Of a DNA stretch of 64,000 bases, positions 6,939 through 50,714 are shown piece by piece. The stretch covers positions 139,872,001 through 139,936,000 of the forward strand of contig OX597818.1 of the NCBI GenBank assembly GCA_951406725.2, in the 5' to 3' direction. Origin of the DNA: Octopus vulgaris (lineage: Eukaryota). The notes beneath the pieces are model-generated. The model searched no databases. It worked only from the letters and a program-made list of their open reading frames with translations, and was not told the DNA's origin. Position numbers and translations under genes: made by a program. The first letter of the stretch is position 1. Every line of letters starts with the position of its first letter.

Positions 6939-7171
6939 AAGGCGGCGAACTGGCAGAAACGTTACCACGCCGGGCGAAATGCGTAGCCGTATTTCGTCTG
7001 TCTTATGTTCTGAGTTCAAATTCCGCCGAGGTCGACTTTGCCTTTCATCCTTTTGGGGTCGATAAATTAAGTACCGGTTACGCACTGGGGTTGATATAAC
7101 CGACTTAATCCGTTTGTCTGTCCTTGTTTGTCCCCTCTGTGTTTAGCCCCTTGTGGGTAGTAAAGAAATAT
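6939..7171 (+). mobile_element. SINE family A (tRNA-like head, Tx1-like 3' tail), full length
   Basis: A-box-like tggcagaaacgt, B-box gagttcaaattcc, tail ctgtgtttagccccttgtgggtagtaaagaaa. 11-bp TSD atatggatctc (6924-6934 / 7172-7182). Confidence 0.92.
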
Positions 7172-7230
7172 ATATGGATCTCCTTTGTGCTTTTCAACTA
7201 GAATTTCTTGGCTCGAAATAAGAATTCGTT

Positions 7231-7600
7231 TACTCTTTTATTCTTTTACTTGTTTTAATCATTTGACTATGGCCATGCTGGAGCACCACCTTAAAGGGTT
7301 TTAGTTGAACATACCGACTCCAAGACTTGTTCTTTGTAAGCCTAGTACTTATTCTATCGGTTATCCTTTGCCGAAGCGCTAGAATACGGGGACGTAAACA
7401 CACCAACATCGGTTGTCAAGCGATGGTGGGAGGACAAACACACACAAATACACACACACACACACACACACACACACACACACACACACACACTCACACT
7501 CACAGATATAATTATTCGACGGACTTCTTTCATTTTCTGTCTACCAGATCCATTCACAAGGCTTTCGTCGGCCCGAGGCTGTCGGGGAAGACACTAGTCA
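7231..7600 (-). mobile_element. SINE family C copy (5'-truncated, internal (CA)n)
   Basis: Reverse complement matches the full copies at 45632 and 60521 (gctccagcatggcc..., gatagaataagtact, cttgtgaatggat). Confidence 0.85.
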
Positions 7601-8087
7601 CGCCTAGCACAGTTTTTTTCTCAAAGCAGGTTTAGCAATGGCATGTGTGGAGCCGTGATGAGGCAGTAGTTTCGATGGTTTTGGTCATGTGTCATTCATG
7701 TCGTGACAGCACGGAAGACAACGAATGTTCAGTGATTGTTTCTTTGCTCTGTTTGTAAAAAAAAAAGACTTGGCTGTCACGCACCCATTGAAAAATATCG
7801 TTTAGAACTAACTGTGTATTAGGCATAAGGTGTTTTGGATGAGTGAGGATCAAATCAGTGTGTTGAAAGTTACGCTAAGCATTTTGCCCGGTGTGCTAAC
7901 GATTTTGCCAGCTTATCACTCTAACGAATGATAAATATTGATTTATGAAATTATTATATCTTGTGGTGTTCGTGGGTGGTACATTAATAAAATAACTGTT
8001 AACGAAGGCAGGATCTAGATCCGGTCTGTCATATTCAGTCTAAAAAATAGATTGTTGCATAGTTACAGGCAATTACTACAAATTGCA

Positions 8088-8300
8088 GTGATTTGGCAGA
8101 ATCATTAGAGCATCGCAGAAAATGATTAGCTGCATTTCGTTCGACTTTTTACCCTTTACGTTCAAATTCCCCTGAGGTCGAAGTTGATATTTATCCTTTT
8201 GGGTCGAGAAAATAAAGAACCTGCCGGGTATCGGATTCAATGAGTTAACTTGCCCACCGCTCCACTAAAATTTTTGAACTTGTGAAAAAATTTGAAAGAA
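8088..8300 (+). mobile_element. Old degenerate SINE with family-A core
   Basis: ttggcagaatcattagagc ... gttcaaattccc ... tatccttttggggtcga. Confidence 0.55.
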
Positions 8301-8508
8301 TTATCATAAACTATCAATATATCACGTCCACAAATATTTGATCTAGTTTTCATGTCCGAATCGGTAATTTTTACAATTTCAAGGCCAGTGGATTGGTGGA
8401 AATGGCTTACATTATTTACTTACACCCTTCACACTGACTGTGACATTCATCCTTCTAGATTCGACCAAATATAACCTAAAACAAGTACGATAATAGATCA
8501 AGCCATCT

Positions 8509-8578
8509 ACGTCTTTTACACTCAAACCTCTTCTGCATCTGGCCACAGATGCAGAAGAGGTTTGAGTTGAAAAGACGT
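8509..8578. repeat. Near-perfect inverted repeat (hairpin)
   Basis: Perfect 22-bp stem 8520-8541 / 8546-8567 with loop gcca. Extends by acgtctttt/aaaagacgt after a 2-nt mismatch. Confidence 0.95.
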
Positions 8579-46864: not shown

Positions 46865-47559
46865 TAATGATTTTTGACTAATTCTGAAACTGAATCAGCA
46901 GTTTATATTTGCTGCTGACAAGTTGGAGCGTTTACGGTAGATTTTGAAAAGTTAGAGTATATATTCCCGAGGCATCATTGAGGCTGCCTCGTGGAATATT
47001 TATTCCCCCTGGTTTCCTTGCCGATGAGACGAACCAATGGTAGATTAACTTGATTAAATTAAATTTAATTTAATTAGGCTGGTTTGCCATAAATTACGTT
47101 GAAACAATGCATTGTCCAAGGATGATTAAGGTAAATGTTTTTGATTTTCCTTTAATTTCTGAATTACTACTATTTAGCGGTTTGAGTATGGCTGCTCTTT
47201 CTAGTGAGACGAATGGTCTATCAGGATCATTCCTTTATATTGTTGTAAGTATATATATATATATATATATATATGTGTGTGTGTGTGTGTGTGTGTGTGT
47301 GTGTGTGTGTGTGTGTGTGTACGTATGTATATTATAAGCATCGACACACGACACATTCAGGTTGTCGATTAACAGTTTTCTTTTATAACATCGGAGTACT
47401 TAAGGCAAATCTCACAAACCGTAAAAAATATAGATGCGTGTACAAATTTCTACAAAAATACAGAAAAAATATACATACAAATACATATTAACATATAAAA
47501 ATATGTACATGAATATATAAGGAAAATTATGTTTTTTTTCTATTCTCTTTATTCCAAAT

Positions 47560-48100
47560 GAGGAGGACTTTAAGTCTATTACGTTTTCCCTGATGAATGA
47601 ACTTATTATGTGGGAGGTAGACAGGAATACTTTATCCATCCCCATTTTACAGTCTGCATCTCCTACTCTCATAACAATGGGGCATTTTACTAGCGCTCAT
47701 GGTCTTTGGCGGTTCATAAGTTGGAGGAGGACATCTTTAAGCTTTCGGTTGTTGTCAGTACTTGATGCAAGTAGCATTGTAAACAAGATGTTTTTGTTTG
47801 CTTGCGGCTTTGCCCATGTTTGGAAATGCAACCCGAAAAGAACTGTAGTAACAACTAGATCTTTCATCTCTGGGGCTTGCTGTTGTTAGTTCTACTATCT
47901 CTGTTTATGCCTGGTGCCTGTTGCCCTCTTATCTTACCTGCTGAGTACATGTTGCTCAAATAGCCTTTATTACCCCAAGAGTAGCAAAGGTGATTCCTAC
48001 ACTCTATCACTCTTTTTGACCATATCTCTGGTCTAAAATGGGGTACTTCTAGGGAGAGCCTTAATGTAATCGAGTTTAGTTGGACGTGGTTGTCCATTCT
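47560..48100 (-). mobile_element. Possible degenerate LINE AP-endonuclease fragment
   Basis: Minus-strand IVMRVGDADCKMG resembles the GDFNAKVG motif. Otherwise heavily decayed. Confidence 0.35.
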
Positions 48101-49699
48101 GAACCCCTCAAAGCTACATTATACGTTCATTCATGCCTGAATGCAAAAGTAATGTAAGCCAAGACCAGACCTTCGCGCTAACATTTATGCTTATGATCCT
48201 TATATTAATGAGACCCATGCAACGTGCGTCGTACTAGTTCTATTTCCCCAATCCTCAGGTTCAAAGTTCCCGTACACTTTTCTGTTTATCTTTTCCTTGT
48301 CTAAGTTGCACGCATCCTGTCACAAATCGGTTACAATTTCCTCTAACTCTTCCTTGAGAGCATATAGCAACCGCCACCACACTTTTGACAAAAAAAAAGG
48401 GACTTATGAAATTCTTCCGATGCCCTTCGATAAAAAAATATTATATCTTTTGTCACTTAGCTCATATATTTCCACTCTTTTTCCAAGCCAGGTCACATGT
48501 TTTGACTCATACCACTTGCGAAAACAGAATGGTATTCCTCTCAGCATTGCTTTTGCTCCTCCTTCAGTTTATTTTCCAAATGTAGCAAACATTATAGTTT
48601 TCTGCCTTCCATTATACTACTGTACGTGTTTAAGCTTGAAGCAGCGTTTATTTGATTCATTGTATGTTCTTTTCTCAATACCATATTTTGTCATCATACA
48701 AATTTTATTGAGCTGTGTTTACTCAAGTTAATGAAACTACTACTACTATTGTGGAGAAGACATCATCCTGCTACTTCTGTGACCACTATGAACCACGTGT
48801 AAATATATAAATCACTATTTGCCAGTAATATATATAGGCAGCGCAAACACTTAAAAGGAAGCACTTCCTCTACCTCACGGTAATCGAACGGACTCTGAAC
48901 AATTCACAAATTTTCATTCAAAAAATTTGCCACAAAAGATTCCTCGTTCATAAAGCAATCTTTTATAAAAATTCATTTTTCAAAACCCTCCCAGAGACAT
49001 CCACTTATAACGAAGAAATAGAGGAGCTTTTGAAAACTGAAACAATAAATGAACGACAGCATAAACACATGACTGCCTATGAGATAAAGTAGTGAAACAG
49101 AAGCACACATGCGCACAGGTGTATATATTGTCTGGTTTCGCACACTTTCACACTGGTACTCACGCAAAAGAAAGCGTTCAAACATACGAGCGCGCACATA
49201 TAGTTACGTTCTCTTACACATACACAGATGCAAGAAGAATGAAAACGTGTACACACACACATATGCGTACATACATTCTTTGCCTATCGAGCAAATGACG
49301 ACACAAATTGAAGAGAGAAAGATAACAAATACAAAAGAAATGAAATATTTTGTTATATTTCAAAAGGTAAAAAGAAAAGAAAGCAAATTTTGAAAAGAAC
49401 AACAACAACACCAGTAGCGTCAACAACAGCTGAAAAAAAAGAAAAAAAAAAGAAAATACCTAGAAAATAAAAATTTTCAAGATAAAATCTGAAAAAAAAA
49501 AGAATCGATTTTTAACCACATGTAAACTGGAAGTTAATAATAAAAATGTTGATTGATGTTTGACGACAGGAAGTGAAATATCCAATATTGTTATATTGAT
49601 GTTGTTATTCGTGCCTTTGTTATTATTGTTCTTAATACAACAATAGCAATAATAAAAATATAACAATGAAAAACATTAACATAATATTGAAGAATGAGG

Positions 49700-50030
49700 A
49701 AAAGACCATTAGAATAAAACCAATAACCATAAGAAAAGGAATATTCCAAGGAGATTTGTTGCCCACGCTACTTTTCGACGTTGCTCTGACCCAACTAATT
49801 TTCTTACGTTTATAAGTTACAGATTCTGTGGGCAAATTACGAATCGTCTATACTTGGACGACCTTAAAATTTTCACGAGAAATAATTTGAAAACCTAAAA
49901 CTTGTGCATAGTTCCATACATCATAGGATTAATTTGGGACGAGCAAACCACAGCACATACCCAAGGCACACAGAGCTGCGCTCAGTAATGCATTGAAAAT
50001 AAGACTACTGAATAATAATAATAATAATGA
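49700..50030 (+). mobile_element. R4/Dong-like LINE fragment (RT core joined to 3' end with (AAT)n tail)
   Basis: TIRKGIFQGDLLPTLLF and RLYLDDLKIF RT motifs. Ends ...gactactgaataataataat. Confidence 0.75.
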
Positions 50031-50307
50031 CAAGAAGAAGAAGAAAAGTAAGAAGTAAAAGAAGCACCTTTTCTGTTTGATTTCAGTCATGCCATTTCTA
50101 AACATATATGTTTATTAATGTAAAAATGGGTGGTAGCTATTAATTGTTGGTCTTGTGGTGCCATTGTTAGATGTTGATAGATATCACTTCCTAAGAATTG
50201 GGTGTATAGCAGTCATAGAAAACGAGAGACGAGAAGAAAGGGAGATAAGAGCGAAAGAGACAGGCAGGTATACAGGCGAGCGGGATAGAAAGACATAAAT
50301 ATCATTA

Positions 50308-50714
50308 TATTTCTTTATTGCCCAGAAGGGGCTAAACATAGAGGGGACAGACAAGGACAGACAAAGGGATTAAATCAATTACATCGGCCCAGTGCGTAAC
50401 TGGTACTTAATTTATCGACCCTGAAAAGATGAAAGGCAAAGTCGACCTCAGTGGAATTTGAACTCAGAACGTAGCGGCAGATGAATTACCTGTTTCTTTA
50501 CTACCCACAAGGGGCTAAACACAAACAGGACAAACAAAGACAGACAAACGGATTAAGTCAATTATAGCGACCCCAGTGCGTAACTGGTACTTCATTTATC
50601 GACTCCGAAGGGATGAAAGGTAAAGTCGACCTCGGCGGACTTTTGAACTCAGAACGTAACGGCAGACGAAATACGGCTACGCATTTCGCCCAGCGTGCTA
50701 ACGATTCTACCAGA
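50308..50714 (-). mobile_element. Two family-A SINEs in tandem or nested arrangement
   Basis: Two Tx1-like tails (at ~50310 and ~50492) and two cores. Confidence 0.9.

Follow-up and report, generated by a model that had tools for sequence, protein, structure and literature searches.

A young SINE family of Octopus vulgaris shares its 3′ terminus with a Tx1-like LINE: a candidate stringent SINE-LINE pair

Mammalian L1 elements pick their RNA templates by the poly(A) tail. Stringent pairs of an L1-clade long interspersed element (LINE) and a short interspersed element (SINE) have nonetheless been described in maize and sorghum (ZmSINE2/3 with LINE1-1_ZM) and in Chlamydomonas (SINEX-3_CR with L1-1_CR; PMC3472496, PMC3747384), and the survey of Ohshima counts three L1-tailed SINEs among 58 pairs (PMC3472496). 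Whether stringency is ancestral in the L1 clade and was later relaxed in mammals and plants is treated as an open question (Ohshima 2012, PMC3472496; 2013, PMC3747384), which rests on three plant/algal SINEs, with no animal example in the literature compared; Table 1 of PMC3747384 holds no animal L1/Tx1 pair and no cephalopod. The current study concerns a stretch of 64,000 nucleotides of the Octopus vulgaris genome (contig OX597818.1, assembly GCA_951406725.2, positions 139,872,001 to 139,936,000, forward strand; hereafter the window), in which a young SINE of approximately 235 bp shares its 3′ end with a Tx1-like LINE. A previous reading of this DNA, made from the letters alone (hereafter the sequence-only reading), had proposed that the SINE is mobilised by a stringent Tx1 element recognising a 3′ stem-loop, an arrangement which it considered unusual.

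In crocodilians, SINEU and Tx1-Mar have been paired by target, age and 5′ heads; all SINEU elements end in poly(A), the shared target is the main evidence for the pairing and no LINE matched the 3′ half of SINEU-1 (PMC4494074). Tx1 families that target microsatellites comprise Kibi in (TC)n, Koshi in (TTC)n and crocodilian families in (TTCC)n or (TTTC)n (PMC4494074). For ZfL2-1/ZfL2-2 and UnaL2-UnaSINE, the ORF2 protein (ORF2p; ORF, open reading frame) was found to read the loop of the hairpin specifically and its stem generically (Hayashi 2014, PMC4176376). Bivalve SINEs have partners among CR1, CR1-Zenon, L2 and Nimb (PMC11481361), MetaSINEs change tails while their partner LINEs are stated to be unknown (PMC4824008), and the repeat paper on O. 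vulgaris gives repeat classes only (PMC13282606). Passages of five further papers (PMC4758252, PMC5786205, PMC8967140, PMC5753468, PMC10294476) contain no tail-sharing SINE-Tx1 pair, and none was found in the literature search as a whole, although Repbase, Dfam and SINEBase lay outside that search and a database entry may exist. The pairing is unusual to that extent, a description tempered by the stringent L1-clade pairs of maize, sorghum and Chlamydomonas and by the Tx1-mobilised SINEU of crocodilians.

Seven copies of the young SINE were located in the window by blastn and sequence reading, all in the places previously cited, with a mean pairwise distance of 9.6% and distances of 2.6–7.8% from the column majority (n = 7). 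They share their last 33–55 nt with both LINE copies of the window, which lie in tandem on the minus strand within one (TATC)n array and whose 3′ ends (21652–21685 and 27695–27728) read as quoted in the sequence-only reading. For each of the 14 SINE × LINE pairs, the best local alignment finishes, in SINE and LINE alike, no more than 10 nt from the 3′ terminus, and this terminal position in both carries much of the significance of the match. When one young copy was compared with the window by blastn, both LINE ends were matched (21/24 identical, E 0.012; 36/46, E 2e-5), while the part shared with the truncated second LINE amounts to 47–53 nt (38/50 and 42/57 identical); bivalve SINE-LINE pairs were accepted at 35–61 bp and 72–95% identity, a range which includes the 76% over 50 nt seen here (PMC11481361). 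Shuffles of the whole LINE reached the pair score in 1/200, 0/200, 0/1000 and 0/1000 trials and shuffles of the tail only in 0–3 of 2000 for each of the 14 pairs, and six copies of two other SINE families of the window score only 10–16 against the same LINE ends. A count of the tail motif (9 matches against 0.01 expected) is circular, the motif having been taken from these very copies. The same stem and loop are present in two LINE subfamilies of the window, which indicates that the terminus is not an accident of one copy.

No poly(A) tail was found on any young SINE copy or on either window LINE (9/9 window ends), the longest A-run after the hairpin being 3–7 nt throughout, and AGTAAA stands in place of AATAAA in three of the seven young SINEs, the least diverged copy among them. 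Target site duplications (TSDs) of 11–18 bp flank all five full-length copies, one of these within (TA)n; they start with ATAT, GATA, TAAG or TATA, and this TA- or AT-rich start overlaps the terminal TA of the SINE. A B-box-like motif, GTTCAAA, lies at position 66–77 in 6/6 copies examined, and a T4 run is absent in 4/6; ARAGORN and Rfam returned no tRNA or Rfam family in the window, in seven sister LINE loci or in one SINE copy. In size the element may correspond to the octopus OK SINE, and in its middle part it may resemble the Meta domain.

Contigs of four public runs (X1, X5, X15 and X16) were mapped on the last 700 bases of the long LINE, depth not being equal to copy number. In X1 the summed depth was 239k in the tail bin, 190k and 97k in the LINE-specific untranslated region (UTR) upstream of it and 17k–351k where the UTR starts and ORF2 ends; the picture in X5 and X16 is similar, so that depth at the terminus and upstream UTR is like that at the ORF2 end in three of four runs, and in X15 the terminus is hardly covered. 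In X1, X5 and X16, approximately 45–67% of the depth at the terminus carries over to the TATC flank (depth at 21655 compared to the flank bin), and no SINE-like loose contig end was seen at the LINE tail among the 24 listed of 468. We conclude that the tail is native to the LINE and common in the LINE family. A gap in contig cover at 21754–21825 corresponds to a skipped repeat, and the much higher depth at 22042–22185, with loose ends, points to further subfamilies. The alternative that the LINE ends are themselves stray SINE fragments, which had been raised together with the original proposal, was rejected. A better match of the tail to another LINE clade, the other outcome named there as refuting the proposal, was not encountered among the LINE sequences compared. 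In viral contigs the SINE tail pattern had no match and the ORF2 patterns no relative.

The (TATC)n repeat, which makes up 0.9% of a microsatellite-rich window of 37% GC, flanks both LINE copies on both sides, the two lying in one array. Over the shared piece of ORF2 the second LINE is identical to the long one at 230/267 nt; it passes (27695–28156, minus strand) directly from ORF2 into the final 195 nt of the UTR and may be a non-autonomous derivative. Upstream of the tail, a hairpin of a U-run and an A-run, absent from the SINE, can form in both LINE UTRs (21710–21765 and 27755–27785, minus strand).

Relatives of this LINE were obtained by a scan of genome contigs, which gave 45 loci, 41 of them from one bacterial metagenome-assembled genome (MAG; CAXXMW01, GTDB label Arenicella). 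The 41 loci are tandem arrays of sister LINEs with 43–44% identity to the query protein; they are evidently host DNA contaminating a bacterial MAG, the host probably being a squid or cuttlefish, and one sister-LINE type groups with a cuttlefish protein. The hairpin sequence GGC-CTNGT-GCC occurs 644–731 nt downstream of ORF2 in 37/37 loci with enough sequence (of 41), although these 37 represent nine sequence types in two deep lineages of one assembly and cannot be counted as independent. All nine foreign types have a C-rich tract before the hairpin and AATAAA 21–25 nt after it, and none has poly(A). Of the 84 more distant L1/Tx1 loci that served as controls (23–43% identity among the matches listed from a metagenome scan), none shows such a hairpin with AATAAA, although many of them may not reach their own 3′ end.

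Six tailed copies of an older SINE with the same head and a different tail are present in the window, of which two had been cited before. The old copies are 52–75% identical to a young copy in head and body and 34–44% in the tail, replacement having occurred after approximately position 170, and the order in time is fixed by a young SINE nested in an old-tail SINE (8815–9297) at a TA-rich spot. When a weight matrix was built from the nine foreign LINE ends alone, the old tails ranked 2, 3, 6, 13, 14 and 57 of 127,922 positions, all six in loop register, and the family mean beat 2000/2000 column permutations, although no single score exceeded the shuffle maximum. Because it matches the 3′ ends of the sister LINEs in this way, the old SINE tail likely derives from the same LINE lineage, and an origin from an unrelated LINE clade was rejected. 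Both SINE tails would thus likely come from one cephalopod Tx1-like lineage, within which the tail swap likely took place. The tail swapping proposed by the sequence-only reading is borne out as far as replacement is concerned, while the old tail, in matching sister-LINE ends, proves not to be foreign.

In the three MAG loci checked, ORF1 and ORF2 are long and open, and the arrays (L081–L121) run head to tail with a period of approximately 6.4–6.8 kb; no microsatellite was seen at the array junctions read, and the array is possibly self-targeting or telomere-like. Between the first hairpin and AATAAA, the foreign LINEs have a second, strongly covarying hairpin of 6–9 bp (L084:4426–4446, L098:3866–3886), which single-sequence folds show in 8/9 foreign types and which is absent from the window LINEs and both SINE tails. 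On the nine foreign ends, RNAalifold detected hardly any covariation for the first stem, and misalignment caused it to overlook the second hairpin. L1/Tx1 elements (L122–L125 and protein P0233) were also observed in MAGs labelled Cetobacterium, Fusobacteriaceae, Metamycoplasmataceae and Sedimenticola, again likely through host contamination.

Anchored on the loop, the closing pair of the first hairpin is C-G in all seven young SINEs, in the two window LINEs and in the nine foreign types. At the second position, G-C is the pair of the foreign ends and most often of the old tails, and C-G that of the young SINEs and window LINEs only, while the third and fourth pairs vary while still pairing; the three inner pairs are kept in 7/7 young SINEs and the fourth in 6/7. 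The loop of the foreign LINE ends is C-U-N-G-U before AAUAAA, as in the loop of the window elements. Over 17 rows, all four stem pairs vary in both partners, 81% of cells are paired and covariation amounts to 0.62 against at most 0.27 for slid registers, in a register chosen by the analyst, with related rows and with the two LINE rows of 6-nt loop out of register. Predicted pairing probability reaches 0.87–0.97 in the window LINEs and is mostly 0.7–0.96 in the foreign ends. A kept loop, a covarying stem and the lack of poly(A) together form the pattern that stringent recognition predicts.

With respect to its clade, ORF2 of the LINE carries the Pfam domains Exo_endo_phos, RVT_1 and zf-RVT, which are L1-superfamily features, and its best match in the PDB is human L1 ORF2p (E 5e-47; R2, E 8e-21); the LINE is a member of the L1 superfamily. 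Its nearest named protein relatives are from Argonauta hians (65% identical). In a reverse transcriptase (RT) tree of 41 rows, picked by hand and leaving out curated L1 rows, the window protein forms one clade with Argonauta, one cuttlefish protein and relatives (14 rows, support 100), which is sister, under a midpoint root and with an approximate likelihood ratio (SH-aLRT) support of only 89, to a clade with five proteins named TX1/YTX2. Proteins so named score 259–282 bits in phmmer, compared to 164 for human L1, although other rows outside that clade score as high, and cluster look-ups gave no clade names. A CCHC knuckle in ORF1 is a feature of the Tx1 clade. Such a zf-CCHC was identified in the window ORF1 piece and in 3/3 sister ORF1s, some below the Pfam cut-off, and the Atlas leads for ORF1 were CCHC and ZCCHC3-like only. 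The label Tx1-like is therefore a fair one, based on the sister position to TX1/YTX2, the CCHC ORF1 and the microsatellite site, strict Tx1 membership being no more than possible; the Tx1-type assignment previously given to the LINE is retained in this sense.

Based on these findings, the two elements appear to work like a stringent SINE-LINE pair, the SINE likely being copied by the RT of this LINE lineage via the 3′ hairpin, a reading to which we assign a probability of roughly 0.7. RNA polymerase III would produce a SINE RNA that runs into the flank, upon which ORF2p would bind the C-U-(G)-U-G-U loop, whatever the sequence of its 4-bp stem, and nick the target; this mode of loop reading we infer by analogy with zebrafish L2, whose ORF2p recognises a specific loop and a generic stem. 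Reverse transcription would start at a fixed point approximately 10–14 nt past the loop, with the result that no poly(A) is copied, and the choice of site may be biased by pairing of the nicked DNA with the last few bases of the RNA, UA for the SINE and UAUC, through read-through, for the LINE. The hairpin of the LINE would have changed in octopods, the SINE regaining activity by a template switch from the old lineage tail to the current one.

The main difficulty of this reading is the mismatch in target, as 0/6 young SINE insertion sites lie in TATC arrays compared to 2/2 LINE copies, and the agreement in target that the original proposal would have led one to look for is not found. Since no SINE site lies in such an array, the TATC-targeting family of the window is perhaps not the partner: a sister subfamily that targets less strictly is the more likely working partner and the TATC-specific family the less likely one, unless terminal RNA-DNA pairing steers the site. 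Such pairing has been proposed for RTE pairs, and partners with different terminal repeats can differ in target pattern (PMC6007223). Beyond the limits already attached to the 37 loci, the 84 control loci, the 17-row alignment and the RT tree, further observations weigh against stringent copying by this lineage. The young SINE loop has 5 nt against 6 nt in the window LINEs; pairing of the SINE hairpin is predicted at 0.2–0.8 in six of seven tails, 0 in one, and 0.05–0.95 in four whole RNAs; the folds of six 46-nt tails are no better than shuffles (z −0.3 to −1.7), so that the stems that both ends had been said to form do exist and are weak; and only 2/6 old-tail copies have an intact stem. By sequence, neither the young SINE tails nor those of the window LINEs are detected by the foreign-end matrix (nulls as high in 967/2000 and 2000/2000), and a covariance model of the nine foreign types recovered just two of the old tails, at E 7–9, and none of the young. 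Taken together, the earlier proposal of mobilisation through a 3′ stem-loop is supported by the LINE-native tail, the kept loop and the lack of poly(A), and is weakened in so far as this TATC-targeting family is perhaps not the partner.

The score of the SINE tail against the long LINE is modest (26–35); it lies near the background maximum of 32 that the tail attains across 80 unrelated L1/Tx1 loci (446 kb), and this might suggest a chance resemblance of two short AT-rich ends; these background alignments are without hairpin and mostly on the opposite strand, and as both termini coincide in 14/14 pairs, shuffles almost never reach the scores and the two other SINE families score low, we regard chance as negligible. 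A reversal of direction, by which the octopod LINE took its present end from a very abundant SINE, would fit with the difference in sequence between the octopod and sister-LINE ends, which shows that the LINE end changed at some point, and with a SINE share of 11.7% of the O. vulgaris genome (PMC13282606). There is, however, no SINE body upstream in either LINE, the tail continues into UTR blocks shared by the two LINE subfamilies, the LINE end carried a similar hairpin ancestrally, and it is the SINE that is shown changing tails, all of which makes this reversal very improbable.

It is only slightly less improbable that the hairpin with AAUAAA acts as a 3′-processing or RNA-stability signal, mobilisation being dependent on poly(A) as in mammalian L1: AATAAA does follow the hairpin in both window LINEs and in 9/9 foreign end types, but genomic poly(A) is absent from the nine window ends and does not follow AATAAA in any of the nine foreign types, and the AGTAAA of three young SINEs, including the least diverged, is at odds with such a signal. 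A tail that is LINE-derived and now a passenger, the SINE being copied by another abundant LINE (e.g. RTE) or by a relaxed enzyme, is the least unlikely of the alternatives though still improbable, for the SINE sites are AT/TA-rich and not TATC, the SINE hairpin is weak, and TSDs of 11–18 bp do not tell RTE from L1/Tx1. RTE is moreover the largest LINE class in O. vulgaris, for which 176 RTE, 169 CR1, 80 L1-Tx1, 60 L1 and 51 Dong-R4 families are listed (PMC13282606). This would leave aside that the SINE carried a tail of this lineage in its old as in its young form, that its inner pairs are maintained as described and poly(A) is lacking, and that partners can differ in target where their terminal repeats differ (PMC6007223). 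Recognition of the 3′ hairpin by the RT of this LINE lineage consequently remains our preferred explanation.

More tentatively, and with less than even confidence, these data may indicate a coleoid-wide Tx1 lineage that, as the first case among animal members of the L1 superfamily, would recognise a hairpin stringently and independently of poly(A). One of the most abundant octopus SINE lineages would have tracked its change of hairpin by tail swaps within the lineage, escaping microsatellite specificity as the terminal RNA bases, and not the endonuclease alone, choose the site. If true, stringent recognition would be supported as the ancestral state of animal L1/Tx1 elements and the machinery that probably drives a major SINE family of the octopus would be identified. 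A hairpin of 13–16 nt with a kept loop, natural stem variants, two tail generations and apparently intact ORF2 relatives make the question testable in an animal lineage, and the pairing of a site-specific LINE with a dispersed SINE would allow the contributions of the endonuclease and of RNA-DNA pairing to target selection to be told apart. The coordinates of the features concerned are collected in Table 1.

Table 1. Features of the SINE and LINE families located in the window (positions of the whole stretch)
Feature	Position	Strand	Remarks
Young SINE copy	6939..7170	+	tail shared with LINE ~7122–7168; hairpin 7146–7158, loop 7150–7154; 11-bp TSD
Young SINE copy	8978..9210	+	nested in old-tail SINE; 17-bp TSD
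Young SINE copy	12469..12697	+	18-bp TSD, one mismatch; G-run of 3′ stem expanded
Young SINE copy	12965..13197	-	in short (TA)n tract; nearest to column majority of the seven copies (2.6%)
Young SINE copy	29026..29258	-	TSD 14–16 bp
Young SINE copy	50493..50713	-	first of tandem pair; slight 5′ truncation
Young SINE copy	50308..50489	-	second of tandem pair; 5′-truncated
Near full-length Tx1-like LINE	21652..27520	-	~5.9 kb, without poly(A); 5′ boundary taken as array edge, one copy only
ORF2 of long LINE	21952..25401	-	1149 codons; APE endonuclease, RT, zf-RVT; two in-frame stops
ORF1 remnants of long LINE	25462..27174	-	stops and frameshifts; one CCHC zinc knuckle in 26099–26581
3′ terminus of long LINE, shared with SINE	21652..21685	-	hairpin 21677–21662, 6-nt loop 21672–21667, then AATAAA
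Second LINE, sister subfamily	27695..28156	-	462 bp, 5′-truncated, internal deletion near 27890, 3′ UTR end kept
3′ terminus of second LINE	27696..27745	-	38/50 identical to SINE tails; hairpin 27719–27706
(TATC)n array	21490..21651	-	directly after 3′ end of long LINE
(TATC)n array	27521..27693	-	between the two LINEs
(TATC)n array	28157..28386	-	before 5′ end of second LINE
Old-tail SINE copy A	445..664	-	tailless old copy follows at 290–444
Old-tail SINE copy C	5318..5530	-	intact 4-bp stem; loop starts at 5344
Old-tail SINE copy D	8815..9297	-	split by young copy at 8978
Old-tail SINE copy E	34500..34662	+	intact stem; ends in (AAT)n
Old-tail SINE copy F	8085..8303	+	degraded
Old-tail SINE copy G	56586..56795	+	degraded
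Second young SINE family (~390 bp)	2440–2803, 11908–12290, 14740–15125, 30183–30590, 33687–34076, 37833–38204		

Other repeats of the window were also noted. A second young SINE family of approximately 390 bp has a tRNA-like head and an unrelated tail, one copy lying in (TA)n, and its copy at 37833–38204 is flanked by a direct duplication of 190 bp (37660–37846 / 38208–38398), which far exceeds an ordinary TSD. A third family contains an internal CA/TA microsatellite (7239–7595, 45632–46036 and 60521–60909). The three SINE families may correspond to OK, OR1 (the 390-bp family) and OR2/CORE (the third). A further repeat, with two copies of 93% identity (34660–34964 and 55547–55853), starts after (AAT)n(GAA)n and is possibly the end of a TAA-associated element.

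In relation to described systems, the octopus elements resemble the plant and algal L1 pairs in that an L1-superfamily LINE and a SINE have approximately 50 terminal nt in common, with a hairpin whose loop is conserved and whose stem varies, and differ from them in that the LINE is Tx1-like, microsatellite-associated, without poly(A) and from an animal. As in the case of SINEU, a short retroposon of an animal probably depends for its mobilisation on a LINE of the Tx1 clade, but here it is the tail that is shared and not the target. Like Kibi and Koshi, the Tx1-like LINE lies in tandem in a microsatellite, although its target is (TATC)n/(GATA)n, for which no Tx1-like LINE was found in the literature search. 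Compared to the stringent L2 elements, the mechanism is likely the same in another clade, established by assay there and by inference here, with a hairpin that is smaller (4–5 bp) in the octopus elements.

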